From: Candidatus Pacearchaeota archaeon
GTDB lineage: Archaea; Nanobdellota; Nanobdellia; Pacearchaeales; GW2011-AR1
DNA: 53,286 bases
Assembly (NCBI GenBank): GCA_023136775.1
Contig: JAGLQO010000013.1
Location: 1-53,286, forward strand
Reading direction: 5' to 3'
The notes beneath the pieces are model-generated. The model made no database searches. It saw only the letters and a list, made by a program, of their open reading frames with translations, and was not told where the DNA came from. Position numbers and translations under genes: made by a program. Below are positions 22,078-44,900 of this stretch, one piece after another (position 1 is the first letter of the stretch; each line of letters begins with the position of its first letter).

Positions 22078-23071
22078 TTTTATCAACCGATTTTAATGAT
22101 TTAATTAATTCCTTAGCTGTTGCATATATTGCAGAAACTGCAACTGAATTCCCAAATTGCTTATACGCTTGAGCATCCGAAACTAAAATTTTAAATGAGT
22201 CAGGAAACCCTTGAAGTCTTGCCCATTCTCTAGGTGTCATTTTTCTAACACCTTTTCTATTTATGGGACCCTTGATATGAGTAGTAGGAATTAAATTTTT
22301 CTGCCTTTTATCTATTATTAAATTTCTTTCTTTTCCCATTCCTCCTACAAGGATTGCATTCGCCACTCCCTTCTTATCAATAATTTGAAACCCGAATCCA
22401 TTTCCTTTTTTAGAATGCCTTTCTTTATGTCTTTTTAATGTGTTTAAATAAACATCGGATAAATAATATTTTGCTGGAACTGGGTCTTTTTCCATCACAT
22501 CTTCAAATGAAATTGTTTTTTTGTTTTTTTTAGGATAACTAAAAGAATTAATACCTAAATCGTTTCTAAATCCCACAATAAAAATTCTTTCCCTATTTTG
22601 AGCTAAGCCAAAATCTTTTGCATTCATTATCTGAGGATCTGTAACATAATAGCCCAAATCGTTTCTCAGAACATTAAGAATAGTAGAAAGAGTCCTTCCT
22701 TTATCATGGTTCATTAGACCCTTGACATTCTCTAAAAAAATAGCTTTAGGTCTTTTTTCCTTTATTATTCTAGCCACTTCAAAAAACAAAGTTCCTCGAA
22801 TATCTCCAAAACCTTTTCTTTTACCCGCTATAGAAAACGCCTGACAGGGAAACCCTCCGCACAAAATATCATGATCTGGGACATCTTTTTCATCTATTTT
22901 TGTAATATCACCTAATGGGATTTCTCCAAAATTTTCATTATATGTTTCTTGAGCAAATCTATCTATCTCTGAACTCATAACACATTTTCCACCAACTTTC
23001 TCAAATGCTAATCTAATTCCACCAATTCCAGAAAATAAATCAATGAAAGTAAACCCTCCTCCTTTCTTCAT
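22070..23071 (-). CDS. DNA (cytosine-5) methyltransferase, M.HpaII-like
   Basis: FSGIGG, GFPCQ, ENVKG, QNRERI, QFGNSV motifs. Confidence 0.93.
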   Translation of the reverse strand: MKKGGGFTFIDLFSGIGGIRLAFEKVGGKCVMSSEIDRFAQETYNENFGEIPLGDITKIDEKDVPDHDILCGGFPCQAFSIAGKRKGFGDIRGTLFFEVARIIKEKRPKAIFLENVKGLMNHDKGRTLSTILNVLRNDLGYYVTDPQIMNAKDFGLAQNRERIFIVGFRNDLGINSFSYPKKNKKTISFEDVMEKDPVPAKYYLSDVYLNTLKRHKERHSKKGNGFGFQIIDKKGVANAILVGGMGKERNLIIDKRQKNLIPTTHIKGPINRKGVRKMTPREWARLQGFPDSFKILVSDAQAYKQFGNSVAVSAIYATAKELIKSLKSVDKNE

Positions 23072-23250
23072 ATAACTATATATTTTTTCAGTTTTTATAA
23101 CTTGCTTATTCTAATGTTTATTTGTTGAATCTTCGATTCAATTATTTAATATCGTTCCTCCCTTTACGGCATCCGCCTATTATTCAACCAATCGCTCATT
23201 CATTCCACTGAAGTTCCATTCATTCACTCCAACGAGCTTACGAACTAATT

Positions 23251-23310
23251 GCCTTGATCCGTGAATACCGAAGGTATCTGTGAAAATCCGTGAGCAAAAA
23301 AATTGCCTTT
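23251..23310 (+). repeat. Family A repeat
   Basis: gccttgatccgtgaa-TACCGAAGGTA-tctgtgaaaatccgtgagcaaaaaaattgcc. Confidence 0.85.
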
Positions 23311-23328
23311 CTATCCTCTCTCCCAAAA

Positions 23329-24771
23329 TTATCTTTTCTTTATTATCGCTCTTTCTAATTTCGACGCTATAATTTTATGCGGAAAATATTCTTTCAAAAT
23401 TTCCAAATTATTATCAACCATTTTATGCCGAAGTTTTTTACTAGCCAAAAATTTCAAAGTCTCACTCAAAACATCATCTTCAACTTCAAATTTATCTAAA
23501 GCCAAAAGAGAAAAATTAAACTTCTCGATATCCTTTTTGAAAACTGGATATTTGTAAACAACTGGAATCAACCCCGACGCTAAAACTTCCAATAAATTAT
23601 TTCCAAATCCCTCAACCTCGCTAAAGTAAGTAGAAAAACCTCCAAGCCTAGCAAAAATTCGAGGATACTCATCAAACGACAATTTAGTTTTATCATAATA
23701 ATCCTCAGCAAAAATCAAAAATACTCGTTTCCCAGTTTCCTTCGCTAATTTTTTATTCAACTTAATTAACTCTCTTTTATATTTAGCACCAGTAACATCC
23801 GCCTGCCCAGAAACCAAAAAATACAACGCTTTCTTTTTGGATTTTTCAAGTAACTCGTAACAATACTTCAAAGCAAAATCAATTCGCTTCCTCTCAACAA
23901 TTCGAGTATGCTGCAAACAAAACAAAGTATCTTTCAACCTTAACCCCTCTCGTCCTAAAAACCCCTTAATATCAAAATCTCGAATAAACCGCTTAACTCG
24001 AGTTCCATTGTCCATCGCATCAATATCCCTAAACGAATTAATAAAAGTCCCAGTCGTATTATACGCGACATTATGATTCGACAAAATTTTCTTATAAAAT
24101 CCCTTATACTTTTTATCAATCTCTAAAAAATATTTCTTAACACTTCTAAGTTGTAAATTATTAATAAAAATAATATACTCTACAAATCGACCAGGAACTC
24201 CTTCCAACAAATATTTCCTAACATCATTTGACGGCCGACTAAAATGCTCTCTCTCCAAATGAGAATCGTGCCACCATAAAATATACTTAGGAGTTTTTCT
24301 CCCTCTGGCAATAGCGTCCCTATAATATCTAGAAAGCGCAACTGAACTAATAAAATTCACAGGATGCGAAGAATTATGAACAATCAAAATATCTATTTTA
24401 TTTTCTTTAACCCAATTTTCAATTCTAATCTTTGCCTTCAAAATCGAAGCCTCAATCCTTTCGCTCAAATGTCCACCATACCCACTCTCAAAATTACCAA
24501 GCATTTTTCTATTCACTTTATGCCTATCCCACAAAACCTCATCCTCAGTAATTCTTAATTCTTTCTTAGATGTCTTTCCAACAAGATAGAAAATATTTTC
24601 TTTTGGAACTTTCAAATTTTCCCTCATCACATTTTCAACCTGCTCCATAACAATAGAAACTCCATCTGAAAATCCAACCTGAGAATGCACAACTCCATAC
24701 TTCAATTTAGGAATGTCCTTCTTAGAAATCTCCCTCAACTTTTTATTACCAACTCCCGTTTTTCGGCACAT
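23329..24771 (-). CDS. GT-B glycosyltransferase (GT4; mannosylglucosylglycerate synthase-like)
   Basis: DGVSIV, WHDSHLER, QHTRIVERKRID, SEVEGFGNNLLE motifs. Confidence 0.75.
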   Translation of the reverse strand: MCRKTGVGNKKLREISKKDIPKLKYGVVHSQVGFSDGVSIVMEQVENVMRENLKVPKENIFYLVGKTSKKELRITEDEVLWDRHKVNRKMLGNFESGYGGHLSERIEASILKAKIRIENWVKENKIDILIVHNSSHPVNFISSVALSRYYRDAIARGRKTPKYILWWHDSHLEREHFSRPSNDVRKYLLEGVPGRFVEYIIFINNLQLRSVKKYFLEIDKKYKGFYKKILSNHNVAYNTTGTFINSFRDIDAMDNGTRVKRFIRDFDIKGFLGREGLRLKDTLFCLQHTRIVERKRIDFALKYCYELLEKSKKKALYFLVSGQADVTGAKYKRELIKLNKKLAKETGKRVFLIFAEDYYDKTKLSFDEYPRIFARLGGFSTYFSEVEGFGNNLLEVLASGLIPVVYKYPVFKKDIEKFNFSLLALDKFEVEDDVLSETLKFLASKKLRHKMVDNNLEILKEYFPHKIIASKLERAIIKKR

Positions 24772-25542: not shown

Positions 25543-25818
25543 TCTTCGTATTTTACAAAATAAAAATACGCCAAGTCCGACCTAATTGCCAAGCATGCGA
25601 AACAAAATTTGGGCGATTGTTGTCCTCTGGACAGGAGCGTAAAGAAATTTTATTTCGCCTTATATTATTTAATTTAATTTCAATTTTTAATAAAAAATTG
25701 AAATTAAATTAAAACTAACTAAGGGGGTACACAGCGAAGGGGGATATCCCCCTTCGCTAAATAAAATTGGACGAAAAACAAATAGGAAAATTCTTTAGTT
25801 TACTTAATGATTAATCTT
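25487..25818. mobile_element. 212-bp palindrome-rich insert flanked by 60-bp direct repeats of the ERCC4 3' end (25487-25546 / 25759-25818)
   Basis: Two 60-bp copies differing at 5 positions; insert holds a hairpin at ~25668-25713 and a perfect 26-bp palindrome at 25733-25758. Confidence 0.65.
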
Positions 25819-26917
25819 TCTTTTGAAATTCATAAATACCTTTAATTTCCTCATCAGATAAATCTCTATTATATACCATAACATCATCAAGTGAAGCCTC
25901 TATACAATTTGTTCCTCCAGCAGTACATCCTATCCTAATAGAATTACTAGTAGTATCTGCTACAAGGTTTACCGCTCTATCTTGAACCAACTCTCCATCA
26001 ATATAAAATTTAATTGCCTTATCTCCATCATAAGTAAATACTGCATGATTCCATTCGTTAAGAACAAGCCCAGTTCCCGTAGTCTGATGGGCATCGTTGC
26101 ACCAAAATGCCATAGAAAGTTGACTATTGTTTTTTATAGATAACATTGAACCATGGGCATCACATCCGCCCCCATATGCTACAACTCTATTATATGTAGC
26201 CGTAGAATAAGAAACAGGTTTGACCCAAGCCATCATCGTCCTGGGACTATTCCCCAAAGGAGCATTATTAAAAACATCTTTTTTTACATAATCTCCAACC
26301 CCGTCTAAAACCAAAACATCTCCATTAATATTCGCATTTCCAAATATTGCCAAATCATTACTCCCAACACTATCCATCACATCACCGTCAAATTTCCACC
26401 AACTAACCAAACCAGTCATAGGCATTTCATAAATATAATCTCGTCCAATTTCATAAACAATTCCAGAACTACTTATCCCACTCGACGGCAACTCAACATC
26501 CGAAGTAGCATCCCCTTCCTTTTCTCTATTCCCCACCGCAAAAATCGGAGCAACACTAACCGAATCTGGCTCACCAATTCCATTCATATCAAAATAATAA
26601 ACCTTAGTATTCCCACTCGCAGGAGCAACAACCGAACTAGAATGACTATTTCCCTCGACGTTAAAAGTAATTTTTATCCTATTCATAACACCCTCATCAA
26701 CATCTCGCTTAACCTGAACCATCGCAATTTCCTTAACAGAATCATAAGCAGTATAACCCTTATTTAAAACACTAACTCGTCCAGACAATGAAGAAAAATC
26801 CAAGCTATCTTGAATCATCGGAATAATCGCAACCCAAACAATTCCAACAGCAGCAACAGTAATCAAAATTATCATCACCGTCGCAATAATAGCACTAATC
26901 CCTCTTTTATTATACAT
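25811..26917 (-). CDS. Pilin-type N-terminus + LamG/ConA-like lectin domain protein (copy 1)
   Basis: MYNKRG|ISAIIATVMIILITVAAVGIVW; GLVSWWKFDG...WNHAVFTYDG...LDDVMVYNRDLS. Confidence 0.85.
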   Translation of the reverse strand: MYNKRGISAIIATVMIILITVAAVGIVWVAIIPMIQDSLDFSSLSGRVSVLNKGYTAYDSVKEIAMVQVKRDVDEGVMNRIKITFNVEGNSHSSSVVAPASGNTKVYYFDMNGIGEPDSVSVAPIFAVGNREKEGDATSDVELPSSGISSSGIVYEIGRDYIYEMPMTGLVSWWKFDGDVMDSVGSNDLAIFGNANINGDVLVLDGVGDYVKKDVFNNAPLGNSPRTMMAWVKPVSYSTATYNRVVAYGGGCDAHGSMLSIKNNSQLSMAFWCNDAHQTTGTGLVLNEWNHAVFTYDGDKAIKFYIDGELVQDRAVNLVADTTSNSIRIGCTAGGTNCIEASLDDVMVYNRDLSDEEIKGIYEFQKKD

Positions 26918-27022
26918 AATAAAATTAAGAAAATATATTATATAAAAGTTGGGAATCAAATCGCCCGCTCAGTTTCTTCGCTCACTCCAAACCCTAGAGC
27001 AATTTTAATTTTAACCAAGAAA

Positions 27023-27763
27023 TTACTGCATAAATTCAGAAATTATTTTGGCACAAATTTTTATTGTTCTCATATCAAACAATTTATCCTTCGAAGGAAT
27101 AGCCTCGACAATATCCATAGCCTTCAAACTTTTAATCCTAAAAATCCTCTTCAACAAATAAAGCAATTCCTTAGAAGTCATTCCACCAACCTCTGGATAA
27201 CTTACCGCAGGAGCAAACGCAGGGTCAATAACATCAATATCAACCGAAACATAAACATCCCGCCCATTAGCTTTCTCAGTAATATAGTCCGCCGCAGCCT
27301 CCATATCATTAATCTCCGAAAAAACCTTAACATTTTTTTCAATCAAAAATCTCTCTTCTTCTGGCTCAATTTTTCTAGCCCCAACCAAAATAACATTCTC
27401 TGGATTAAACCCATCCTCAATTATCGCTCGAAGAAATTCTTCATGAGTAGGCTCTTTCATTGGAGGCATACAGTCAGCATGAGCATCAAACACAATCAAA
27501 AAAGCATTTTTATAATTTTCCCGGAAAGCCTTAAATATTGGATAAGTTATCGAATGGTCTCCCCCAACAAAACAAACTTTCTCCTGATTAGATAAAACCC
27601 CTCTAGCCTTATCTAAAATTTGTTCTTCAGACTTCTCAATATCGCTATTATCAACTTCTAATATCTCAAAATCTCGCTTAAGTTCCTTACCAATAGCCTT
27701 ACTCATATCTTCAGGACCCTTATGCCCAAGTGCATTAATACGCGGAACTCCAATAATTTTCAT
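27023..27763 (-). CDS. Arginase/agmatinase (ureohydrolase) family protein
   Basis: GGDHSIT, DAHAD, SVDIDVIDP motifs. Confidence 0.9.
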   Translation of the reverse strand: MKIIGVPRINALGHKGPEDMSKAIGKELKRDFEILEVDNSDIEKSEEQILDKARGVLSNQEKVCFVGGDHSITYPIFKAFRENYKNAFLIVFDAHADCMPPMKEPTHEEFLRAIIEDGFNPENVILVGARKIEPEEERFLIEKNVKVFSEINDMEAAADYITEKANGRDVYVSVDIDVIDPAFAPAVSYPEVGGMTSKELLYLLKRIFRIKSLKAMDIVEAIPSKDKLFDMRTIKICAKIISEFMQ

Positions 27764-27793
27764 AACAATAAAAAATAAAACAAGATTTTAAGT

Positions 27794-28960
27794 TTATTCA
27801 TTCTTTTGAAATTCATAAATAGATTTCACCTCATTTTCAGATAAAGCCCTGTTGTAAATCATAGCATCATCAATCATTCCGTCCATCTCGCCCCATGAGG
27901 CACCTATTTGATATTGACTATTCATATTAAGAACTCCGTTCACAACAGAAGACTTGCTAACTATTAATTCGCCATCTACGTAAATATACATCATAGATTC
28001 CGCCCTATCTAACACATATGCAATATGCTTCCATTCTTCTAAAGATACAATGTCAACAGGAGTACCAATAGAAAAAGAACTTGCGTCTCCATATCCTCTA
28101 CCTCCGAAAACAATCCTCCCATCTGAATGAATACCTCCCACAACCCAAACACAAGAATCTGTAGTAGACCAAGCTGAACAATAATTACTTTGTTGTATAA
28201 ATCTTATATAATCGCCACGAGATATAGAACTAAAACTTCTGGGATATACCCATAGTGAATAAGAATAGCTTTCTCCATCTGGACTCAAATCTTGACCTGG
28301 AGAATAATATACATAACTATTATCAACACCACTCAAGTCAATCCCACTCCTTTCATCTACAGAATTAAAATTTACTCCACCAGATGCCTCTACCAAATCA
28401 TTACTCCCAACACTATCCGTAGCATCCCCGTCAAATTTCCACCAACTAACCAAACCAGTCATAGGCATTTCATAAATATAATCTCGTCCAATTTCATAAA
28501 CAATTCCAGAACTGCTTATCCCACTCGACGGCAACTCAACATCCGAAGTAGCATCCCCTTCCCTTTCTCTATTCCCCACCGCAAAAATCGGAGCAACACT
28601 AACCGAATCTGGCTCACCAATTCCATTCATATCAAAATAATAAACCTTAGTATTTCCACTCGCAGGAGCAACAACCGAACTAGAATGACTATTTCCCTGA
28701 ACATCAAAAGTAATTTTTATCCTATCCATAACTCCTTCATCAACATCTCGCTTAACCTGAACCATCGCAATTTCCTTAACAGAATCATAAGCAGTATAAC
28801 CCTTATTCAAAACACTAACTCGTCCAGACAATGAGGAAAAATCCAAGCTATCTTGAATCATCGGAATAATCGCAACCCAAACAATTCCAACGGCAGCAAC
28901 AGTAATCAAAATTATCATCACCGTCGCAATGATAGCACTAATCCCCCTTTTATTATACAT
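27794..28960 (-). CDS. Pilin-type N-terminus + LamG/ConA-like lectin domain protein (copy 2)
   Basis: Same N-terminal ~190 aa as copy 1, different LamG core (WKHIAYV...IDDAMIYNRALS). Confidence 0.85.
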   Translation of the reverse strand: MYNKRGISAIIATVMIILITVAAVGIVWVAIIPMIQDSLDFSSLSGRVSVLNKGYTAYDSVKEIAMVQVKRDVDEGVMDRIKITFDVQGNSHSSSVVAPASGNTKVYYFDMNGIGEPDSVSVAPIFAVGNREREGDATSDVELPSSGISSSGIVYEIGRDYIYEMPMTGLVSWWKFDGDATDSVGSNDLVEASGGVNFNSVDERSGIDLSGVDNSYVYYSPGQDLSPDGESYSYSLWVYPRSFSSISRGDYIRFIQQSNYCSAWSTTDSCVWVVGGIHSDGRIVFGGRGYGDASSFSIGTPVDIVSLEEWKHIAYVLDRAESMMYIYVDGELIVSKSSVVNGVLNMNSQYQIGASWGEMDGMIDDAMIYNRALSENEVKSIYEFQKNE

Positions 28961-29066
28961 AATGGAATTAAGAAAATATATTATATAAAAGTTGGGAATC
29001 AATCGCTCGAAGCTCCGCTTCTCACTCCAAAAATCCATCCTCACTCCTAAAATCATAACCCCCCCG

Positions 29067-30469: not shown

Positions 30470-30535
30470 CCCCTTGTCTTAAATCCGTGAACACCGAAGG
30501 TGTCTGTGTAAATCCGTGAGCAAAATTGCCTTCCC
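30470..30535 (+). repeat. Family A repeat
   Basis: gtcttaaatccgtgaa-CACCGAAGGTG-tctgtgtaaatccgtgagcaaaattgccttcc, abutting the stop at 30535. Confidence 0.85.
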
Positions 30536-31299
30536 TATTTCTTAACCTTAACAACCAAAATTCTTTCACCATCTTTCTTAAAATCCTTCTTGACAGAAAA
30601 ATTCTCCTCAAGATAATCAACAATCCACTTTCGCTGAACAGTAAATTTCTTCCGACCACCGAGACTTTCCGTAGGCAAACTAACAACTATCCACTCACAT
30701 TCTTTAGAAATTTCAGTTATAAATTTCTTAGAAAAATCCCTTTCCAAATTTTCCAAAGCATCCACAACCTGAAACAAAAACACACATCTATCTTTATTTT
30801 GCCGTTTCAAAACATCCACAATTTTTTCAAACTCAAATAAATCCATACATTCAGCCCTAGCTAAAAACATCTTTTCTTCAAAATACTTATTCATGCCGTC
30901 TACCAATTGACCAGCAGCCTCAATCCCTACATAATCAACACTTCCAAGTTCTTCTTTTATCTTACCATAAGAAAATCCATTCGCTCCACAACCAAGATCA
31001 ATAACAGAATGAATCCCCTTTATATCTTTGGGGCCACCAGAGTCATCCCTTGGGGAAAAAATTTCCTTATAAAATTCTTCATAATTTCTCTTCTTGCTAG
31101 ACATATGATTTTCAAGCATTTCTTTTTCATCCCCCTTAGCCTTCAAAACCTTATTTGTCAAAAAAACTCCAAAATATTTTCTAAGTAAAGCCCGAGCCCC
31201 CTTAACCTCTCCGCCACTTTTCTGAACAGCCCTTTGCACAATAGAATCAGGCAAACCACTAAGTTCTCTTTTTTTCTTAACCTCTTTTATCAAACTCAT
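30535..31299 (-). CDS. SAM-dependent methyltransferase, FmrO/ArmA/Rmt (16S rRNA m7G1405) family-like
   Basis: HMSSKKR (cf. HxSTxER), DLGCGAN (cf. DxxCGxNP), VVSLPTESLGGRK (cf. VVSFPTxSLGGR). Confidence 0.7.
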   Translation of the reverse strand: MSLIKEVKKKRELSGLPDSIVQRAVQKSGGEVKGARALLRKYFGVFLTNKVLKAKGDEKEMLENHMSSKKRNYEEFYKEIFSPRDDSGGPKDIKGIHSVIDLGCGANGFSYGKIKEELGSVDYVGIEAAGQLVDGMNKYFEEKMFLARAECMDLFEFEKIVDVLKRQNKDRCVFLFQVVDALENLERDFSKKFITEISKECEWIVVSLPTESLGGRKKFTVQRKWIVDYLEENFSVKKDFKKDGERILVVKVKK

Positions 31300-31355
31300 A
31301 GCTATACAATTCACTCAAAGTTTAAAACAATTTCGAAACTTATATCTTCTAAAAC

Positions 31356-31403
31356 TTCCATAAGAAATAGTAGCGTCCGCAGATGCTACGATTTCTTATG
31401 GAA
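31356..31403. repeat. Hairpin family C (TCCATRAGAAAT...ATTTCTYATGGA)
   Basis: ttccataagaaat-a-gtagcgtc-cgca-gatgctac-g-atttcttatggaa; relatives at 48998-49054 and 6068-6167. Confidence 0.75.
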
Positions 31404-31511: not shown

Positions 31512-33395
31512 TCAACTGAACCATATTTTCAAAATACCACGAATCTTCTCTATCCTTTTTATCAACATCTCAACTTCCTTAATCTCTCGAGGAACTACTA
31601 CCAAAAAACATTCCGCATAATCCTTATCAATCATTTTAATATTAGCTTCCTTTATAACAAAACCACCTCGAGAAACAGTATTTAAAATGTCTGATAAAAT
31701 CCCAGACCTCTCATTCACTTTCAACTTAATTTTAATTGGACGATTAAATGTCTCCTTCCAATTTACATGTATCTGAGATTTTGTTGAATGATCAATTCTA
31801 TTACAATTCTTTTTATGAACAAGAATTTTCCTATAAGATTTTATCACCCCTACAATCTCATCAAGTGGAAGTGGATTACAACATCTTGCCAAATTATATT
31901 TATGATTCGGAAACTCTTCACTTATCACTAAATCTTCAAAATCTAATTTTCGATCCTTAACAGTCGGAAATAATCTTACAACCTTTACATCCTCATATCT
32001 CTTAACACCTTTCTTAATATGAGATTTTGCCCTAGAAGTAACTACAAATTTTAACCAAGCTCTTCTCGGTCTTTGAAATTTATTCGTAACAATTTCGACA
32101 ACATCTCCCGATGTCAATTCTTTTTTTAACGATGAGAAATTTCCGTTAATCCTCCCCCCAGTTGCCAAGTCCCCAACCTTACCATGAATCCTATATGCAA
32201 AATCCAGAATTGTAGAATTCTTAGGAAAATCAAAAACATCACCCTTCGGAGTATAACAATAAATTCTATCCTCAAATAAATTCAACTTCAAAGATTCTAA
32301 AAAATCTTTATCCTCTCCACCCTTCTGTAATTCAAAAATTTCTTTCAACCATGCAGTCTTTTTTTCAAAACCAATATCTGTCTTTAGTTTTTTATAAGAC
32401 CAATGAGCAGCCACTCCTTCTTCCGCAACCTCATCCATCTCAACAGTTCTTATCTGAACCTCCAAAATCTTACTATCCAAAAGTTCCAAACAAGTATGAA
32501 TTGATTGATAGCCATTTTCTTTTGGACAAGAAATATAATCTTTCAAAGTACCTGGAATAACTTTATAATTCTCATGCAAAACACCAAGACAATCATAACA
32601 ACTCTTTTCATTTTCCACAATAATCCTAATCGCCAAATGATCCCTTTGCGTCTCCAGCGGCTTTTTCAAATCTTTCATCTTTTTATAAATACTATAAATC
32701 TGCTTTTGACGACCCTTAATTTTCACGGACTTGCCTTTCAAAAAATTCTCAAATTCTTTTATTATTTTTTCTAAATACAATTGCCTCTCCTCATAAGTTT
32801 CTTTCAAAAAATTCTCAATCTCTCTATACTTTCGAGGATTAATAACCCTAAAAGAAACCTGAATAATTTTCTGTTTTAATTTCTCAGCCCCAAGTCGACC
32901 AGCCAACGGAGCATAAAACTCCACAGCGTCTTCAGCCAATCTCTTCTGCTCTTTTTCCGCAAAAGATTCCATGGTCTCTAAATTAACAAGTTTAGAAGCA
33001 AGCCGAACGAAAACAACTCGAATATCATAAAGCGTTGTAAAAAATATTTGACGCATCAAATCCGCCGAAGCTGATTTTGACTTCTCTTTTATTTCTTTTA
33101 ATTTTAATTGTTCAAAAACCAAATTAACAACTTCTCCATCAAAAAATTCCTTCAAATTTTCTTTAGAAATTTTATTTTCAAGACCATACAAAAATCCAGC
33201 AACAACAACGCTTCTTGACATCTTAGATTCAATCAAATATTTAGCAATTTTCAAATTATAAAAATAAACTGATTCCCCATTCAATCTTTTTTCAGAAAAC
33301 AAATATTTCTTAGAAAAATCCAAAGCATGCTTAAAACTATTAATATCTTCCTTTGAATAATTTTTCTCCTTACATAATAACTCTAAATTTTCCAT
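31512..33395 (-). CDS. relA: Long RelA/SpoT homolog: degenerate HD + synthetase + TGS + Cys/ZFD + ACT
   Basis: GRQKQIYSIYKKM, KDYISCPKENGYQSIHT, EVQIRT, AEEGVAAHWSYK; TGS (YTPKGD...LDFAYRIH); LARCCNP; ACT (ERSGILSDI). Confidence 0.88.
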   Translation of the reverse strand: MENLELLCKEKNYSKEDINSFKHALDFSKKYLFSEKRLNGESVYFYNLKIAKYLIESKMSRSVVVAGFLYGLENKISKENLKEFFDGEVVNLVFEQLKLKEIKEKSKSASADLMRQIFFTTLYDIRVVFVRLASKLVNLETMESFAEKEQKRLAEDAVEFYAPLAGRLGAEKLKQKIIQVSFRVINPRKYREIENFLKETYEERQLYLEKIIKEFENFLKGKSVKIKGRQKQIYSIYKKMKDLKKPLETQRDHLAIRIIVENEKSCYDCLGVLHENYKVIPGTLKDYISCPKENGYQSIHTCLELLDSKILEVQIRTVEMDEVAEEGVAAHWSYKKLKTDIGFEKKTAWLKEIFELQKGGEDKDFLESLKLNLFEDRIYCYTPKGDVFDFPKNSTILDFAYRIHGKVGDLATGGRINGNFSSLKKELTSGDVVEIVTNKFQRPRRAWLKFVVTSRAKSHIKKGVKRYEDVKVVRLFPTVKDRKLDFEDLVISEEFPNHKYNLARCCNPLPLDEIVGVIKSYRKILVHKKNCNRIDHSTKSQIHVNWKETFNRPIKIKLKVNERSGILSDILNTVSRGGFVIKEANIKMIDKDYAECFLVVVPREIKEVEMLIKRIEKIRGILKIWFS

Positions 33396-33429
33396 ATTGA
33401 TTAAAATTAAAAATAATTTCTCCTGTTAT

Positions 33430-33957
33430 TTACAAGTTAATGAAATTTAAAATCATTTCCCTATTCCGAACTTCGGGATGAAAAAGCGTTCCATAAATTT
33501 GCTTCTCCTTATGCTTAACAGCTTGAGCAACTTTACCTTCAGAAAAAACCTCAAAATCATCATTGAATTTAACATAATTATTATGCAAATGATAAACCTC
33601 TAAATCTCCCTCAAGCTCCAAAAATTCCTTATCAAAGTTTTCATGAAAATATCCAATCTCCAAATTCTTCTTTAATCCACCACCAAAGACAAGTCCAATT
33701 AATTGAAACCCTGCACAAATACCAAGCAATGGTTTCTCAAAATTCTTTATCCAATTAAACTTTTCAACATCTTCCAAAAAAGAATTATCTTTCAAACTAG
33801 TACCACAAATAATTACCTTATCACATCCATCAAAATCCTCTTCAGTTAACTCCAAATAATACTTAGTAAAAAAATCCCCCTCCAAAATATCCTCAATAGG
33901 TTTTACAAATTCTAAATAATGAAGTTTTTCTTTACATAGATTAATAATTAAAATCAT
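33430..33957 (-). CDS. Class I glutamine amidotransferase (GuaA/TrpG-like, stand-alone)
   Basis: PLLGICAGFQ nucleophile motif and FHPE triad motif. Confidence 0.88.
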   Translation of the reverse strand: MILIINLCKEKLHYLEFVKPIEDILEGDFFTKYYLELTEEDFDGCDKVIICGTSLKDNSFLEDVEKFNWIKNFEKPLLGICAGFQLIGLVFGGGLKKNLEIGYFHENFDKEFLELEGDLEVYHLHNNYVKFNDDFEVFSEGKVAQAVKHKEKQIYGTLFHPEVRNREMILNFINL

Positions 33958-34139
33958 GAATTAAGACCTCCATCTTGAAAAGAACAAGCACGAAAGAATC
34001 GTGCAACAATGTATTCTTCCCGTAACCCCCGTCCTGTTAGCTCTCCGAAAGAGTGCCTGTTACCTCGCGGGATACGCGCGGGTTTTACAAATTCTAAATA
34101 ATGAAGTTTTTCTTTACATAGATTAATAATTAAAATCAT
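33899..34139. mobile_element. 123-bp structured insert flanked by identical 59-bp direct repeats of the GATase 5' end (33899-33957 / 34081-34139)
   Basis: Exact duplication encoding MILIINLCKEKLHYLEFVKP; insert contains a family D repeat; creates a 61-aa chimeric ORF at 33954-34139. Confidence 0.7.
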
Positions 34140-34675
34140 AACACTACCTCCTCAAGTTTTTCACGAATAACTTTAATTAATTTTTTATGGACTTCAGTTA
34201 ATTCTCTTTTTTCCTCAACCACTTTCAAAATTTCTTCAGTTTCTTTTTTATATTTTTTAGCAAATTTAATATCCATCGTAATTAAATCACTAACATTATC
34301 AAGCCTATCTGCAAGCTTAATCACAAGTGCCCAATTTCCAAGAGCATTCTCACTTGAAAGTTTATGTGCCAAATATGCTGTTTTGCCCACTTTCGAACAA
34401 GAAAATTTATCCGTCGTCAACTCAACAACCAACAAAGCAACTAAGTAACCAAAATTCTCACTCAACTCATAAACTCCCGTATCTGTCTCCTCTAATGTAT
34501 CATGCAAATAAGCAGCCGCAACTAAATCATCAATCTTATGACTTTTCTTAAATTTTGAAACAATATCAGCAACTCGTATAGGATGATTAACATAAGGACT
34601 TCCATCTTTTCTAGTCTGTCCTTTATGTTTTTTTATCGCAAACTCTTTCGCCCTAATTATCAAATCACTTTCCAT
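34136..34675 (-). CDS. Stand-alone HD-domain small alarmone hydrolase (Mesh1/SAH-like)
   Basis: HKGQTRKDGSPYVNHP, AAYLHDTLEET, IKLADRLDN. Confidence 0.88.
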   Translation of the reverse strand: MESDLIIRAKEFAIKKHKGQTRKDGSPYVNHPIRVADIVSKFKKSHKIDDLVAAAYLHDTLEETDTGVYELSENFGYLVALLVVELTTDKFSCSKVGKTAYLAHKLSSENALGNWALVIKLADRLDNVSDLITMDIKFAKKYKKETEEILKVVEEKRELTEVHKKLIKVIREKLEEVVL

Positions 34676-35342
34676 TCTTTAAATTTAATTCCCTCCTCCA
34701 AGAATGCCCCTCTCCAAAATCTTCGAAACTCTTTACTTTCAATCCAGATTTAAACAAAGGACAATTTATTGTAAAACTTTCAAACTCTCCACCCTCACCA
34801 GCTGGATTAATCTTATATTTATTCCACAAAACTTCCATTTCTTCAATAAATTTTTTATCAATTTTTCGTCCTAAAAAATTTTCATCTAAAGGATAAGCCA
34901 TAACTCCAACAACAATTATTTCAAACTTCTCATCAATTAAAGTTTGCAAAATATCAAATTGCCCTCGCTGCCAAAGCGGATTAAAACACTCAATATTTAA
35001 TTTATTACAAATTTTTTGAACCCTAGTGGCCTGATAAACAGACTCAACAGCCCCCGTAACAACCCCTTCAATTTTATATTTCTTCATAGCTTCCAAAATA
35101 GCCCTCTCCAAGTCTTCCAACTCTTTTTCCTTTTCCCCTTCAGTCTCAACAACAATCAAAGGCAAATCCATTTTCTCTGCCTGCTCTTTAACTCTAGAAA
35201 TCGAAGGCGTATGAAACATAAAACTTTCCTTATTTTTAGAATCAATTGTAATCAAACAAGAAATCTCATATCCATCTTTTTTAGCAAGCCAAGCTGCTAA
35301 GGCAGAATCCTTTCCCCCACTAAACAAAACTCCTAACTTCAT
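34665..35342 (-). CDS. Diphthine-ammonia ligase (Dph6/DUF71) family PP-loop ATPase
   Basis: LFSGGKDS, SFMFH, PLWQ, PAGEGGEFES. Confidence 0.88.
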   Translation of the reverse strand: MKLGVLFSGGKDSALAAWLAKKDGYEISCLITIDSKNKESFMFHTPSISRVKEQAEKMDLPLIVVETEGEKEKELEDLERAILEAMKKYKIEGVVTGAVESVYQATRVQKICNKLNIECFNPLWQRGQFDILQTLIDEKFEIIVVGVMAYPLDENFLGRKIDKKFIEEMEVLWNKYKINPAGEGGEFESFTINCPLFKSGLKVKSFEDFGEGHSWRRELNLKNGK

Positions 35343-35412
35343 AAAACAATAACACAATTTCGATTTAACAATCTTTTGACTAAAAATTAATTAAAAATAT
35401 TTATCATAATCC

Positions 35413-35754: not shown

Positions 35755-35855
35755 TTTTTATTTAAAAAATGTTCCATAACAAAAACCTAAAAAATAAAAA
35801 TTTTTAAAAAAAATTATCTTCCAATCTTTACTAAAAACATCAACACTCTAAAAAT

Positions 35856-35980
35856 CCCTGCCTTGAATCCGTGGGTATCCGTGTAAATCCGTGGATAAAA
35901 TTGCCTTCTTTTCCCTGCCTTGAATCCGTGGGTACCGAAGGTATCCGTGTAATCCGTGAGCTAAAAATTCGTCTTCCCTC
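35856..35980 (+). repeat. Two tandem family A repeats
   Basis: ccctgccttgaatccgtgggta occurs twice; second copy carries TACCGAAGGTA, first lacks it. Confidence 0.85.
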
Positions 35981-37995: not shown

Positions 37996-38982
37996 CTACA
38001 CCTTCAACCCAATAGTTTTATTAGCATTCTTATTTTTAATCTTACTTTCTTGTCCTAAAACTTTCTCAAGTATTTTTATTTCATTTTGTATCTTAACCAT
38101 ATTTTCCTTATACCTTTTTTCCCGAAGTCTATAAGTTGCCGTTGTTATAGTCTTCGCATTAAAACAATTCTCCTGTGCTTGCTTAAGTAATTCCCTAGTA
38201 GAAACTAATTCAATCCTGAAATTAGATAACTTCTTCTCCTTAAGATACCTATTTACTTTTTTAGTTATTGGAACCGATATCCCCCCGAGGAATAAAAGCA
38301 CCAAAAGAATCTGCCACCAATATCGAACAAGAAACCCTTGAGTTGCCTTAATAGCAGATTTAATTCTTTGGCTTTCCGCAGCTGCTTGAGTTAATTCTAA
38401 ATTAGCATCACCAAGAATAAGTTCCGCATCATCATATCTCTCTCCCTCAAACGCAACCTTCGCCTCTTCAAAAATAACACGAGCATCATCAGTAATTACG
38501 CCATCTTTTTTATACTGTGCTTCTTTTTCTTCAAATAAAGAAATCTCGTCAAGAATTCTATAAGCCTGGTCCCTTCGCTGAACAATAACATAAGCAAGTT
38601 TCGCGGACTGAAAATAATCTTGAGTTTTTCTCTCGTAAGAAGGTGTTTCTTCTCCAATAACAATTAAATCCTCAAGATAAACTCCTTTAGGTCCATCTAT
38701 TTCTAATTTAAACAACTCAGTCAAATCCGAAGGAGTCATTCCAATAAAGTATCTCTTGGCTTCCAATAAAGTATCTTTAACAAAAAAACTAGAGAATCCC
38801 TCGGCCTCCATCTCGCTCACAAGACCTTCTGCTTTCATCAACCCACCCAACGCCTCTCCATAATTAACTTCCCGAACCTCATCATAAGACTGCGCAACAA
38901 CAAAACAAAAATTCATAACTAAAAACACAACTAAAACAGTCACCCCACATCCATTCTTTTTCGCATTCCAAATTCTATTCAT
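37996..38982 (-). CDS. Partner of giant surface protein (signal peptide, helical bundle, TM, cytoplasmic helical tail), copy 1
   Basis: Paralog of 49406-50344; ATGA overlap with the giant gene. Confidence 0.8.
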   Translation of the reverse strand: MNRIWNAKKNGCGVTVLVVFLVMNFCFVVAQSYDEVREVNYGEALGGLMKAEGLVSEMEAEGFSSFFVKDTLLEAKRYFIGMTPSDLTELFKLEIDGPKGVYLEDLIVIGEETPSYERKTQDYFQSAKLAYVIVQRRDQAYRILDEISLFEEKEAQYKKDGVITDDARVIFEEAKVAFEGERYDDAELILGDANLELTQAAAESQRIKSAIKATQGFLVRYWWQILLVLLFLGGISVPITKKVNRYLKEKKLSNFRIELVSTRELLKQAQENCFNAKTITTATYRLREKRYKENMVKIQNEIKILEKVLGQESKIKNKNANKTIGLKV

Positions 38983-41900
38983 TTTCGCATTGTCCTCTCT
39001 AAAAAAATTTTTACCTTATCACTCATATCATTCAAAAACTTAAGAAGCTTATATTTTTTTGTGTTTTTTTCTTTTCTATGTTTTTCTTCAAGTATAATTT
39101 TTTCTTCATCTAATTCCGATAGTCTTTCCTTCTCAAGATTATACAACCTCTTAAATTTCCTCTCCGTCAACTTCTCCTTATTAAAATAATCTTCTTGAGT
39201 TTTCACCATCATCTCATTTAACTCCCTCTTCTCCTTAACTAAATTCTTTATCTCTTGGTCAGTTCTCAAAATTCCAATACGCTTATTTCTAAGTTTAATC
39301 CTCAAATGTTTAAGATCATCCAATCTATTCTCATATTGAACTATAGCCTGCTTATATCTCTCTGGAGAAAAAGAACCCTTAGATAAATAACTAGTCTGCG
39401 ATTCTTCCATTAAGGTATTTATAGATTTCTCCTCTTTATCCAACCCCTTAAGTCTTTGATTAATAATAAATATCGTACTATGCTTATAACTCAAAAAAAG
39501 AACAATCAACAAAATAATCATAGAAATTATAATCAACCACCAATAGTTCACAATAACCCAAAGCAAATCAAACTTTCCCTTCGTCTCCAAAATTAACGCC
39601 AACTGAGCATCCTTAGCCCTATCCATTGCAGCCTCGAAATCCTCTCTCTCAAAAGCTTTTATAGCCAAAATTAAATTATTTTCAGTTTCGCTAACATCAA
39701 GCCATCTCAATTTTGCCTTCTCAACTTCACCTTGAATTTCTTTAATTAATAAATCCGCCTCGAATGCAGTTTTTGCAAGTGCCAAAATACGGTCAGTAAA
39801 TTCAAGCGTCAACTCATAATTCAAGTTCCCAAAAGCACTAGTTGCCTGTCTCAATAAATCCTCAATACTCCCTACAGGAAATCCAGCATCCCTCATCAAT
39901 AAAAGACTCTTTTTAGCATCATCTAACCCTTTTATAGCCTCATCACTACTTTTCTCAATCAATCCAAAAATAAGTGTTCTATATTCCAAAAAAGGCTTAG
40001 ACATAAATCCTGCAGCTTCACTATCCAAGGCAACAATGTCAGCACTAATTTCCAAAGTAATTTCATAATCTTGCTTCTCCAAATAAGGCGGAGCAAAAAT
40101 CTCAAAAGTATAATTCCTACTTTCTAAGAAATACAATCTTGCTTCTTCAGCAGGTCCCAATTTATGAATCCAAATTTGTGCAATCCCATTAGTTATGTCC
40201 CATAAAGTTATAGCAGAATCATTCACCCCGTCGCCATCCAAATCAATATTCTTAGATTCCTTCAGATCCAAACTCATATTAATAGGATTTGAGGAAATAA
40301 TAAAATATGCAGAATCTCCTCTAAGTTCCGACAACAAAACAGAATGTCCTCCCAGCTCTGTCAGATTAAACGGCAAACTTCCGCCCTGACCTGATAATCT
40401 TAAATTTCTACTTTCAACATAAACAAGTTTTTCAGGATCAAAGTCAAAAGATATCTTAACATATTGTGTCAAAAATCCCTGCATTTCTAAGTCCAAATTC
40501 TCAAAAACCGCATTCTCATAAAAATTGGTAATGGTAATTGGTAAAAACTCCGTAGTCCCTCTAACCAAAGAAAGCTTCTCAGTGGTATAAATCGTCTCGC
40601 TATCACTCTCAACCTTCTTTCCACTGGATACCTCAGTTGAAGTTGATGGTGGACTAGGAGTATCTCCTCCTCCAGAATCAGAATATTTAGAACTTGCCTG
40701 AACGCTCACAGTTACAGTATCGGCAAAAATCAATCCTAACTCTGTTAAATTCGCACCAGAAGCATTAATCGCAGTTGTACTAACAGTTACCACATAATCT
40801 CCAACAGGAGTATCTGTAGGAATCGTCACCTCTATATTATTCTCCGAACTATCCTCTGGGAAAAATTCTCCTTCAAAAGTTATGCTCTCAGACCCAAAAG
40901 TAACAACCCAATCCTCTGGTAAATCATAAAAGAACATAGTATCGTATGCGTCACCCTCTCCGATGTTTTCCAACTCTGCATTAAACTGCACCCCCGTAGC
41001 CCCTTGAATTACGACCAAACTTCCAGTACTTGGATTTAAAAATCTATTAACAAGAACGGGTTGATTCGGCGCAACAACAATAGATCCAGTAATTATTTTT
41101 GAAGAAGGCTCTGCATCTAACGTAGAACTACTAATATTTAATGTAACAACTTTTACTCCCGCCTGAGTTGCAGTATCATTTATAGACAAAACCTTGACCG
41201 CACCAGGGGATAAATTAAAATTTTCACTTTCATTATAAATAGTCTCATTAGAATCACTAGTTATATCAAAATCTAATGCAAAATCTCCAGCATTATTAAT
41301 AACAAAATCTTCAAAAGTTATATCCTCTAACAAACTTACACTTATAGGATCAAAAGACACAGGAGGCTCAGTTATCCAAGTATGATCGAATTCTATAGTT
41401 CTATTAATAACACCGCTAAAATCAGAATTGCCCACAGAATCATTTGCAAACAATCTTAAATTATAAATTCCGGGAACAGTCGTATTTAAAATACTAACAT
41501 AAAAACCTGAAGAATCATTAAACACCATACTAATGTTTGTATAATCAGTTGTATTCGTTAATTTATACTGGAAAATAACTGCCTCCAAAGAAGTATCATC
41601 TTCAGTTACATTAGCATTCACAGTTATATTTACACCCGGATCTAATCCATCAATCGAATTAGGATCCGTCGCTAAACTAATAAAATCAGGAGCAATATTA
41701 TCTATCGTAAAAACTCTTGTCTCGCTTAAATCTGAATTTCCTGAAGCATCCAAACAATTAATCGTCCAATTATATGTTCCATGAGGAAACTCACCAACAT
41801 CAAATACAGTAGGAACATTATTAACAACCATAGAATTGGTTTGATTCAATAAAGAATTTATCAAAACAGAACAATCAAGAGTAGAATCATAATTATCAAT

Positions 41901-44900
41901 CACAGTAAAATTAAGGTAGATACTTGAATTCATTACATTAGACAAATTAAAATTATTAATTGGAAGAATTAAAGTAACATCAGGATTTATTACATCGCCA
42001 ACACCAAATAAACTTTCATTTGTTTCACTGTTTCCACTTGTGTCATTTGCAAACCAACCAACATCATATTGTCCTGTCATAACAGTATCTGAAAAAGTAA
42101 AATAATAATTATCAGTTATATTGTTCACCCCAGCAAGAACAGCAGTTCCATTTGGATAGGTTATATTCGCTAAAACAGTACTTATTCCAATATCATCGCT
42201 CACACTAACATTACAAATAACACCCTGGCTTAAATTTGAATTTTCAGGACTACACCCCAAGTTCAACAAAACAGGAAGAGCAATATCATTGACATTAAAA
42301 TTATTAACTTCGGTTGAATTTAAATTTCCGCTTGTGTCGTTCGCAATAATTACCACATCATAAGACCCAGGCAAAGCTGGAGCGATGAATGAATTATTAT
42401 ATTTATCTCCGACGGTGTTGGTTAGGGTTAGTTGGATAACGGTTGAGTTTGGGTAGGTTATATTAGCTAAAACAATATTTACATTAAAGTCGTCAATTAC
42501 GTCAGTAGAAATTTCAATAATATCTGAAATGTTGTAATCGCTATTCGCTATTGGAGAAATTGAAGTTACATCGGGGTTCACTACATCATTGACATTAAAA
42601 TTATTAACTTCGGTTGAATTTAAATTTCCGCTTGTGTCGTTCGCAATAATTACCACATCATAAGACCCAGGCAAAGCTGGAGCGATGAATGAATTATTAT
42701 ATTTATCTCCGACGGTGTTGGTTAGGGTTAGTTGGATAACGGTTGAGTTTGGGTAGGTTATATTAGCTAAAACAACGTTTACATTAAAGTCGTCAATTAC
42801 GTCAGTAGAAATTTCAATAATATCTGAAATGTTGTAATCGCTATTCGCTATTGGAGAAATTGAAGTTACATCGGGGTTCACTACATCATTGACATTAAAT
42901 AAACTTTCATTTGTTTCACTGTTCCCACTCGTATCATTAGCAAACCAACTAACATTATATTGCCCAGTTAAAGAAGTTTCACTAAAAGAAAAATAATAAT
43001 TGTCAGTTACATTCGAAACAGCAACGGTAACCGAAGTTCCATTCGAATAAGTTACATCCGCCAAAACAGTACCAATACCAATATCATCAACAACCGTAAC
43101 ATTACAAACAACACTCTGACTTAAATTTAAATTTTCAGGACTACATCCAAGATTCAACAAGACAGGAGAAACAATATCCTCGACGCTAAAATTATTAACT
43201 TCGCTATCATTAATATTCCCACTAGAATCCCTAGCAATAATCTTTATCTCATAGGACCCAGGTAATGCTGGGGCGACAAAAGAATTATTATATTTGTTTC
43301 CAACAGTATTGGTTAAAGTTAGTTGGATAACAGTTGAGTTTGGGTAGGTTATATTTGCTAAAACAGTACTAATTAAATTACTATCAGTCACATCAGCTGC
43401 AACCTCAATAGTATTTGAAACATTATAAATTTCATTTTGTATTGGAAATAGCGCGGCAACATCAGGATTCACAGTATCAACATTAAATGTAAAATTAGAA
43501 ACCGCAAATATTTCATTACTAGAAATATCTTCAACCAAACAATTCCAAATATAATTTCCATCCACAATATTATTTATTATAAAATTACTTTCGTTTGAAA
43601 CCCCAGAAACATTTTGGGTTTCATTAATTCCAAAAGGCTGACCAATATTATGGTAAAAAGATATACTGCTCAAACCCGTATCATCCGTCGAATTACAAGT
43701 AAAAGTTATATCATTTAATTTTAAATTGGCATTATTTACAGGAGATATTAAATTGACCAAAGGCGAGTTACTCTCCTGAATACTAAAGCTTCTAACCTCA
43801 CTATCATTTAAATTATCACTTGTATCATTTGCAAATATCTCAATCTGATAAATTCCAGTCTCATTAACATTGCTAAAAGTAACATTATAAATTCCATCAA
43901 AATTACTATCTGTTAACTGAAGTCTAACAACAGTTAAATTTGGAAGAGTAAAATTAGCATAAACATATGAAACATTTATTTCATCACTCACATTAACAGT
44001 TAAACTAATATTTGCTAATTGTAAAAAATTACTTCCAATAGTTGGAGTCAATATTTCCACATCAGGGTTCATTATATCATTAACATTGAAATTACTAACC
44101 TCGGTTGAATTTAAATTCCCGCTTGTGTCGTTTGCAATTATTACCACATCATAAGATCCGAGTAAGGCTGGGGCAATAAAAGAATTATTATATTTATCTC
44201 CGACAGAATTGGTTAGGGTTAATTGGATAACAGTTGAGTTTGGGTAGGTTATATTGGCTAAAACAAAATCAACTTCTAAGTCATCGGTCACGTCAGTAGA
44301 AATTTCAATAATATCTGAAATGTTGTAATCGCTATTCGCTGTTGGGAAAACTGAAGTAACATCAGGGTTCATTATATCATTGACATTAAAATTACTAATC
44401 TCGGTTGAATTTAAATTTCCACTTGTGTCGTTTGCAATTATTACTATATCATAAGATCCGAGTAAGGCTGGGGCAATAAAAGAATTATTATATTTATCTC
44501 CGACAGAATTGGTTAGGGTTAATTGGATAACAGTTGAGTTTGGGTAGGTTATATTGGCTAAAACAAAATCAACTTCTAAGTCATCGGTCACGTCAGTAGA
44601 AATTTCAATAATATCTGAAATGTTGTAATCGCTATTCGCTGTTGGATTAATTGAAGTTACATCAGGGTTCATTACATCATTGACATTGAAATTACTCTCA
44701 CTCGTCTTAATATTCTCACCAGTATCATTTGCAAACCAACTAACATTATACTGTCCCGTCATAACAGTATTTGAAAAAGTAAAATAATAATTACTATCTA
44801 TATTATTCACTCCCATCAAGACAACTGTTCCATTAGGGTAAGTTACATTAGCCAAAACCAAACTAATGCCAATATCATCAACAACCGTAACATTACAAAC

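Follow-up and report, generated by a model that had tools for sequence, protein, structure and literature searches.

A probable synthesis-only RelA-like enzyme and a candidate alarmone hydrolase, paired by gene content and not by a conserved operon, in a Pacearchaeota archaeon

Long RelA/SpoT homologues (RSHs) of the RelA/Rel type move pyrophosphate from ATP to GDP or GTP, and the histidine of their TGS domain, with its neighbors, reads the free 3' end of deacylated tRNA on a stalled ribosome. Among small HD-domain hydrolases, MESH1 is reported to act on NADPH. In the toxSAS-SAH modules, in which a small alarmone hydrolase (SAH) accompanies a small alarmone synthetase (SAS), the hydrolase degrades the product of the synthetase, as reported in bioRxiv 10.1101/575399. 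Here we describe a long RSH and a putative SAH encoded on a 53,286-nt contig of Candidatus Pacearchaeota archaeon (assembly GCA_023136775.1, contig JAGLQO010000013.1). The window analyzed is this whole contig, and it belongs to a genome of 1.2 Mb in 38 contigs, estimated to be 87.5% complete with 0.69% contamination. Genomes, loci, families, and genera are referred to by codes where necessary (G000 for the genome of the window, L numbers for loci, f20 for a family, and g1/g39 for genera). The genomes compared include metagenome-assembled genomes (MAGs), whose incompleteness bears on every absence reported below.

An earlier note on this DNA, made from the sequence alone, took it as established that archaea lack signaling by long RSHs. 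Reviews still say so: PMC10249747 (2023) and PMC8646023 (2021) treat (p)ppGpp, i.e., guanosine penta- and tetraphosphate, as undescribed in archaea and RSH enzymes as rare there, a 2026 paper places (p)ppGpp in bacteria and plants, and Atkinson et al. 2011 (PMC3153485) has archaea without long RSHs. That generalization nevertheless holds only in part, as Li et al. 2021 (PMC8407392) reported RelA/SpoT in 41.7% of Woesearchaeota and in other DPANN phyla, with a predicted bacterial origin. The presence of RSHs in DPANN is thus already known at survey level, and some members of the clade described here carry names at NCBI. Our literature searches returned nothing on clade-wide hydrolase loss, on the short helical region, on the insertion history, or on the ~400-aa protein family described below; figure S34 of PMC8407392, a RelA/SpoT tree, may show part of the clade structure.

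We consider it probable that the RSH is a DPANN synthesis-only, RelA-like enzyme for which the SAH is the likeliest alarmone degrader, the two forming a make-and-break pair by gene content without a conserved operon. The RSH gene (31512-33395, minus strand, as are all genes of this run) encodes 627 aa, and an N-terminal HD fold followed by a RelA_SpoT synthetase domain identifies the product as a long RSH. The domains are a pseudo-hydrolase (HD_4, aa 24-170, 32886-33326; 8.2e-24), the synthetase (RelA_SpoT, aa 228-336, 32388-32714; 5.7e-36), TGS (aa 378-437, 32085-32264; 3.6e-18), a remnant of about 58 aa of the alpha-helical region (aa 438-495, 31911-32084, delimited by alignment and motif distance), a zinc-finger/RIS domain of the CC..H..C type (aa 496-548, 31752-31910, delimited by alignment, with PF28438 RelA_RIS precomputed for homologues), and an ACT/RRM domain (ACT_4, aa 553-624, 31524-31739; 1.9e-06). 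The closest solved structure is that of Bacillus subtilis Rel (6yxa, E value of 4.7e-102 over RSH residues 18 to 487). The open reading frame (ORF) coordinates, the lengths of 627 and 179 aa for RSH and SAH, and the spacing of 740 nt between the SAH stop and the RSH start given in the earlier note are exact, and its reading of the RSH as an enzyme with intact synthetase motifs and TGS, Cys, and ACT domains is borne out by Pfam, by the alignment with B. subtilis Rel, and by an alignment of 86 clade members.

The hydrolase site is lost. At eight signature positions that read H-P, H-D, E-D, D, and N in Escherichia coli SpoT and Bacillales Rel, the RSH reads Y-N, Y-G, N-K, S, and N: the histidine and proline of the HP motif have become Y46 and N47, the HD dyad Y70 and G71, and the aspartate of KLADR S134, and the ED pair is gone, replaced by N and K. 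All four hydrolase metal ligands (Y46, Y70, G71, and S134) are therefore among the replaced residues, as the same earlier reading had proposed. In Rel from Streptococcus equisimilis the Mn ligands are H53, H77, D78, and D144, and the four matching RSH positions are all replaced. The synthetase motifs GRxKxxxSIYxKM, DxxAxRI, KDYIxxPKxNGYQSxHT, and EVQIRTxxMxxxAExGxAAHWxYK are, in contrast, the same as in B. subtilis Rel. Across the 86 clade members, G228, R229, K231, D252, K292, Y296, H300, E312, and Q314 of the synthetase, F399, A400, and H404 of TGS, and C505, C506, P510, H527, and C531 of the zinc finger are invariant. Conservation within the clade is highest for TGS (0.76), followed by the synthetase domain (0.73), and the pseudo-HD domain is among the lowest (0.61). 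The motif just ahead of DYI is TLKD in the window RSH and RLKD in the clade consensus, the basic kind of motif typical of Rel rather than RelA.

Loss of the hydrolase site is a property of a whole archaeal clade, which we term hS for synthesis-only. Among the 120 nearest RSH homologues, the aspartate of the HD dyad is kept in 2 (98 have G), the aspartate of KLADR in 19, and the first histidine in 93. All 29 sequence-checked RSHs of family f20 fall in this clade, scoring 498 to 610 bits against the window RSH; only 1 keeps the HD aspartate, and none keeps the ED pair. Likewise, a full HD dyad is absent from all 14 loci taken from the window's order or belonging to named archaeal MAG records (L024-L026). 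Two hS RSHs from genomes without a stand-alone hydrolase, L045 (G222; H-N, H-G, E-D, D, N) and L046 (G262; H-N, Y-D, G-E, D, N), keep more hydrolase residues than the other clade members, which may indicate residual activity or recent loss. Other long RSHs of the same phylum are intact at every one of the eight signature positions (8 of 8 checked, plus L002 and L004 of G045 and G050). NCBI uses the label "bifunctional" (Rel/SpoT) for many clade members; given that the window RSH has no intact hydrolase signature and that the HD aspartate is kept in only 2 of 120 homologues, the annotation "bifunctional synthetase/hydrolase" is probably wrong for the hS clade.

Long RSHs are common in this phylum. 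HD_4 matches were found in 224 of 401 phylum genomes; 150 of the matches were listed, with 142 further ones beyond those, and 147 of the listed ones are frames of at least 560 aa, from about 146 genomes. In trees built with quick searches and with 14 to 15 bacterial rows chosen by pattern matching, the hS clade forms one branch apart from the bacterial RSHs (SH-aLRT support of 100 and 99 in trees of 56 and 51 rows). The 37 archaeal rows all lie on one side of a branch that separates them from 14 bacterial rows, with weak support of 69, and with this archaeal support and this number of bacterial rows no donor lineage is resolvable. One RSH with a dead HD domain, that of G055, nests among hydrolase-intact archaeal forms. 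The window's genus also contains a 466-aa RSH form (L005 on contig C20 of G006 and L006 on contig C1 of G035; also G085 and G151) with a degenerate HD domain, a synthetase domain, and a TGS domain, after which it stops. This form has neither zinc finger nor ACT domain and sits on its own long branch, and no SAH was detected in the four genomes that carry it. The nesting of G055 and the separate 466-aa branch indicate repeated loss of the hydrolase in these archaea, separate from that in proteobacterial RelA.

The C-terminal half of the RSH is shortened. The AHW and CC.P motifs are 176 residues apart, compared with 237 to 262 in 15 bacterial RSHs, so that the helical region is about 75 to 85 aa shorter, and E. 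coli RelA aligns in two stretches that skip chain residues 521 to 595. In RelA-ribosome structures, the segment missing here runs along the A-site finger. A linker between TGS and the Cys domain shorter than that of bacterial Rel had been noted before, and this holds; its interpretation as an adaptation to an archaeal ribosome is not supported. The hydrolase-intact archaeal RSHs have the same short helical region (motif distance of 172 to 181). Because the trait is shared with these sister forms, it is not tied to hydrolase loss, nor is it evidence of adaptation to an archaeal ribosome. ESM Atlas clusters suggest, as a lead only, that bacterial RSHs of 606 to 642 aa may exist; the Atlas's own model of the RSH has a predicted TM-score (pTM) of 0.57, and its nearest clusters were used as leads only.

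The SAH gene (34136-34675) encodes 179 aa. A single HD_4 domain in a protein of about 180 aa (HD_4, 1.4e-13; HD, 2e-07), in an ORF bounded by Dph6 and the duplicated start of a glutamine amidotransferase (GATase) gene, makes it a stand-alone RSH-type HD hydrolase of the SAH kind. Its motifs read YVNHP, YLHDTLEE, and KLADRLDN, and Q20, R22, H31, H58, D59, E62, D123, and N127 are invariant among 120 relatives that are 51 to 73% identical. The best solved relatives are human MESH1 (3nr1, 1.5e-17) and Drosophila Mesh1 (3nqw). One origin for the SAH was considered and rejected: it is not a fission product of the RSH's own HD domain, as the SAH query gave no match to the window RSH at 1e-5 and scored no better against archaeal HD domains of the hydrolase-intact HS type (48 to 58 bits) than against bacterial HD domains (48 to 63 bits). 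Jumbo phages with SAH homologues at 40 to 43% identity include Burkholderia phages BcepSaruman and BcepSauron, several Vibrio phages, and uncultured phages of more than 480 kb.

The SAH lies in a block, Dph6-SAH-GATase, that is kept in three genomes of the genus (the window's genome and those of L115 and L116) with ORFs overlapping or abutting. At the head of the block is the gene for Dph6, the archaeal diphthine-ammonia ligase (34665-35357; TIGR03679, 262.2 bits, cut-off of 197.3), which shares 11 nt with the start of the SAH gene. The GATase, a class I enzyme of 175 aa (33430-33957), sits between SAH and RSH, 34 nt ahead of the latter, and might supply ammonia to the adjoining ligase. Its identification as a GMP-synthase subunit was rejected (58.8 bits against a cut-off of 198, and no GMP_synt_C found in the genome).

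A second stand-alone hydrolase candidate occurs in another DPANN family that carries hS RSHs. Family f20 has a Woesearchaeota protein family of about 385 to 430 aa with an RSH-type HD signature (L117:876-2030, which is G721:C14, L118:878-2128, and L120-L131). The first of these scores 32 bits for HD_4, and its best PDB matches are the N-terminal halves of Rel. The residues R, H-P, H-D, E-(E/D), KLADR, and H-N are invariant in 14 of 14 members, which are annotated as "hypothetical protein" and mostly have no Pfam hit (one has an N-terminal DUF1653). This ~400-aa family is a candidate novel long alarmone hydrolase, judging from its signature. It was found in 58 of 71 f20 genomes, including 53 of the 62 that encode a long RSH; across the phylum sample, 37 of 42 f20 genomes have it, with 2 weak partial hits in 358 others. 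Small SAH-like frames are rare in f20 (7 of 71 genomes, plus one ambiguous). Conversely, the ~400-aa family was not found in the window genome or in G001, G222, G262, G129, or G006. Nor does it lie beside the RSH in any of eight genomes compared: in G477, G554, and G437 the copies listed are either distant from the RSH on the same contig or placed on other contigs, and in the remaining five the two are on different contigs.

Among the 301 genomes sampled from the window's order, 34 have an HD_4 match and 10 carry an hS RSH. The small SAH occurs in 6 of these 10 carriers, compared with 16 of the 291 genomes without an hS RSH, although five of the six are from one genus and kinship inflates the contrast. 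With G003 and G015 added, the SAH is present in 8 of 12 hS carriers of the window's family (G000, G003, G015, G104, G152, G156, G172, and G204). Thus, two hS lineages each have a different stand-alone RSH-type hydrolase, and the families with intact RSHs lack the ~400-aa family, a distribution that favors a division of labor. A synthesis-only RSH with a separate hydrolase is therefore a lineage-level pattern, with no operon.

The alternative that survives best holds that the SAH has nothing to do with the RSH and acts on another substrate (NADPH, (p)ppApp, or nucleotides of phage conflict), the RSH product being removed by a NUDIX enzyme, by dilution, or by residual activity of the pseudo-HD domain. 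We regard this as unlikely, although it has to be taken seriously, and several observations weigh on its side or against a make-and-break pair. The Dph6-SAH-GATase block is conserved without an RSH, small SAH-like genes occur in the 16 order-sample genomes mentioned above, and all five tested genomes with such genes (93 to 100% complete) had no RelA_SpoT domain; because of these occurrences, an SAH need not serve an RSH. Four of the 12 hS carriers (G001, G222, G262, and G129; 85 to 93% complete) yielded neither an SAH nor the ~400-aa protein. The nearest named relatives of the SAH are the jumbo-phage hydrolases, together with PHROG 990, and SAH-like genes of other lineages in the phylum sample are less similar to it (30 to 41% identity); its ESM Atlas neighbors, used as a lead only, are mostly viral. 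The genome also encodes two NUDIX proteins. In addition, only about two independent lineages (f20 and genera g1/g39) underlie the co-distribution, the six sequencing runs that contain the stretch, from cold-seep and marine-sediment metagenomes, are all DNA with no RNA run among them, and the RSH scores 498.3 bits with NCBIfam TIGR00691 (spoT_relA), 0.9 bits short of the cut-off of 499.2, a shortfall in keeping with its shortened C-terminal half. Finally, the SAH motifs had been described as fully intact; HP, HD, and KLADR are kept, but the ED pair reads EE, a conservative change at a position (E63) where 117 of 120 relatives have D. This last objection is softened by the ~400-aa family, in which E is the majority residue there (11 of 14).

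Against the view of an unrelated SAH stand the full RSH-type hydrolase signature, invariant in 120 relatives, the enrichment of the SAH among hS carriers even if relatedness inflates it, and the second, unrelated hydrolase family that tracks the hS RSH in f20. Moreover, a bacterial synthetase without a hydrolase is reported to be toxic in PMC3153485.

The earlier note saw the two genes as a co-located split system, which implies a dedicated two-gene alarmone module, conserved and co-regulated. A dead-hydrolase RSH and a separate RSH-type SAH are indeed part of a single run on one strand, Dph6-SAH-GATase-RSH, whose junctions are short or overlapping, and both genes are found in 8 of the 12 related hS carriers. 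Their co-location, however, is not conserved, and we consider such a module very unlikely. RSH and SAH are adjacent in only one of the eight genomes with both genes, that of the window; in G015 they lie on separate large contigs of 369 kb and 84 kb. The synteny survey found no SAH or other window neighbor gene within 7 to 10 kb of the RSH in 14 relatives' loci and no SAH within 8 kb of it in 6 metagenome loci, i.e., none in 20 further loci. (The scan of genome contigs for the context of the closest relatives covered 3 archaeal loci, the metagenome scan returned nothing above 46% identity, and the 60%-identical homologue P0002 lies outside both.) Even in the window, a repeat element with its own ribosome-binding site parts SAH from GATase-RSH.

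The history of the locus points the same way. About 20 kb around the RSH is collinear with two other genomes of the genus, G015 and G003, which share the window's order of Hef helicase, ERCC4 nuclease, M16 peptidase, Rmt-like methyltransferase, GATase, SAH, Dph6, and DRG GTPase genes but have no RSH between methyltransferase and GATase. Their own RSH lies at another locus; the homologues of its two flanking genes are direct neighbors on contig C23 of G000, with no RSH remnant there. The window RSH is 47 to 49% identical to the G015 and G003 RSHs, compared with 50 to 80% for most flanking proteins. Since the collinear genomes lack an RSH at this locus, the two genes became neighbors secondarily, when the RSH gene alone was inserted, either relocated within the genome or brought in as a replacement from a related archaeon. 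The RSH-SAH neighborhood is a one-off accident of this genome, with little significance of its own. Two further insertions relative to the collinear G015 region are seen in the window: an HpaII restriction enzyme, a C5-methylase, and a glycosyltransferase between the Hef helicase and ERCC4 nuclease genes (21007-24771), and a TafC-like pilin, an agmatinase-like protein, and a 420-aa LamG-like protein between ERCC4 and the M16 peptidase (25811-29056). At 1.2 Mb, the genome is larger than those of most relatives (0.5 to 0.9 Mb).

It is also very unlikely that the RSH is a pseudoenzyme or regulator that makes no alarmone in vivo, a leftover of a gene once received from bacteria and retained for its binding domains. 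The truncated helical region and the threonine found where the clade consensus has the arginine of an RxKD-type motif could be read in this way, but the synthetase catalytic residues are invariant in 86 sequences, the synthetase is among the most conserved domains, and the clade is both large and old. Haloferax and Sulfolobus, the archaea assayed to date, have no RSH genes according to PMC8646023 and are uninformative for DPANN.

We regard the contig and its RSH gene as archaeal. The contig carries an archaeal Dph6 (262 bits, cut-off of 197), a Hef helicase (578 bits), an ERCC4 nuclease, and a FlaI-like ATPase. The 120 best RSH homologues are 43 to 60% identical and 607 to 663 aa long, sit on contigs of up to 1.47 Mb, and, where named, are from a Woesearchaeota or Nanoarchaeota archaeon. 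That long RSHs are typically bacterial and that no 16S rRNA gene was found in the genome assembly speak for bacterial contamination of an archaeal bin, an explanation with next to no probability given the archaeal markers flanking the RSH on the same contig, the collinear genus genomes, the at least 120 archaeal-named homologues, the separation of the clade from the bacterial RSHs sampled, and the low contamination estimate.

Returning to a synthesis-only RSH with a separate degrader, we propose that the hydrolase site was lost at the base of the DPANN clade, with continued constraint on the synthetase, TGS, zinc-finger, and ACT domains. The RSH would then most likely make a (p)ppGpp-type alarmone from ATP and GDP or GTP, governed by its C-terminal sensor domains, and the SAH, as the likeliest degrader in the cell, would remove the 3'-pyrophosphate of that alarmone. 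By analogy with the characterized enzymes, we infer the synthetase activity, its product, the gating by tRNA or ribosome, and the action of the SAH on the RSH product. A role in controlling dormancy, as suggested in the earlier note, is likewise conjectural. The RSH gene was inserted 0.5 kb downstream of an older Dph6-SAH-GATase block in this lineage. We tentatively extend this to a wider proposal, which we hold as possible but would not yet favor: Woesearchaeota-type DPANN may run a genuine alarmone (stringent-like) system, the first in Archaea, in which an RSH was acquired once, its hydrolase site stripped and its helical domain truncated while the tRNA-facing TGS and zinc-finger modules were strictly conserved, and in which the off-switch was outsourced at least twice to unrelated hydrolases, the ~180-aa SAH and the ~400-aa f20 family.

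On the minus strand the genes around the RSH run in the order Dph6, SAH, a 182-nt duplication and insert, GATase, RSH, Rmt-like methyltransferase, and M16 peptidase. The 740-nt gap between SAH and RSH is thus occupied by the GATase gene and by a GC-richer, 123-nt repeat element (33958-34080) with a Shine-Dalgarno-like GGAGG just before the GATase start codon, and the element lies between two identical 59-nt stretches of the GATase 5' end (33899-33957 and 34081-34139). A 61-aa ORF (33954-34139) is a by-product of the duplication and no gene. The element consists of G-rich GGTAACAGG/ACGGAGG repeats followed by a conserved core, a GAATACATTGTTGCAC..TTCTTTCGTGC hairpin, and is present in five copies in the genome (in the window, at about 28765 on contig C10, and on contigs C11, C19, and C24). 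The window and C10 copies sit just before the GGAGG and ATG of a gene and are flanked by a duplicated gene 5' end, perfect over 59 nt in the window and imperfect on C10, where it lies ahead of a ParA/MinD-like gene. The element looks like a mobile leader or an insertion resembling a miniature inverted-repeat transposable element, with an unusually long target duplication. An Rfam search of the 123 nt returned nothing near a gathering score (best E values of 1.3 and 4.6), and its folding is no better than that of shuffled sequences (z of -1.35). In the reads of four DNA runs, the element junctions recur in two further runs of the source's own study, and no insert-less form of the locus was seen.

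Directly downstream of the RSH lies a distant homologue of the Rmt family of 16S rRNA (G1405-N7) methyltransferases (30535-31314, minus strand; 57 bits against a cut-off of 250). The gene keeps its place in relatives without an RSH at this locus, and its proximity to the RSH is therefore incidental. Between the two, about 110 nt past the RSH stop, is a 22-nt inverted repeat (31356-31403; 91% complementary, 4-nt loop), a possible terminator or boundary of the inserted segment. Elsewhere in the window, a perfect 23-nt direct repeat (35855-35877 and 35912-35934, spaced by 57 nt) occupies the divergent intergenic region between the genes for a 113-aa membrane protein and a DRG-like GTPase. Two giant ORFs encode 3253 aa (38979-48740, minus strand) and 975 aa (50341-53268, minus strand), the latter with no family match. 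No tRNAs or Rfam families were found in the window.

These results show that long RSHs are common in one archaeal phylum, contrary to reviews that call archaeal RSHs rare, and bring to light a likely systematic misannotation together with an unannotated family of candidate hydrolases. The RSH and the putative hydrolases are specific genes that can be cloned to ask whether Archaea have a stringent-type response, and the clade offers a way to study how a ribosome sensor of bacterial type functions in a cell with archaeal ribosomes.

Among described systems, E. coli RelA is the closest in plan. Like the window RSH, it has a degenerate HD domain, an intact synthetase, and a C-terminal half with TGS, zinc-finger, and ACT domains (3.8e-89 to chain 8 of 5iqr), and it shows the same division of labor, with a separate hydrolase elsewhere in the genome. 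However, E. coli RelA groups with proteobacterial SpoT and alphaproteobacterial Rel, whereas the archaeal hS clade is a separate branch (support of 99 to 100 with 14 to 15 bacterial rows), which points to an independent origin; by tree placement, the window RSH falls outside the RelA subfamily of beta- and gammaproteobacteria. E. coli RelA also has EFDD before DYI where the window RSH has TLKD (RLKD in the clade), the helical region of the window RSH is about 80 aa shorter, its partner is a small SAH and not a SpoT paralogue, and its host is an archaeon. The bifunctional B. subtilis Rel (6yxa) has the same domain order and synthetase motifs but differs from the window RSH, in which all hydrolase metal ligands are replaced and the helical region is shorter. 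The hydrolase-intact archaeal RSHs (L002, L004, L059-L068, and L070) share the phylum and the short helical region but keep 8 of 8 signature residues and score 296 to 417 bits against the window RSH, compared with 498 to 610 for hS members.

For the hydrolase, MESH1/Mesh1-like proteins resemble the SAH in consisting of one HD_4 domain of about 180 aa that carries the HP, HD, and KLADRLxN signature; the SAH differs in the EE of its ED pair and in being nearer to jumbo-phage hydrolases than to the SAH-like genes of the phylum sample. As a pair, the genes resemble the toxSAS-SAH modules as described in bioRxiv 10.1101/575399, in that the gene for a synthetase lies close to one for a stand-alone hydrolase. 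In those modules, however, the synthetase is a small single-domain SAS and the arrangement is bicistronic and conserved, whereas in the window a long RSH with sensor domains takes the place of the SAS, the two genes are separated by a GATase gene and a repeat element, and their adjacency is unique to this genome.

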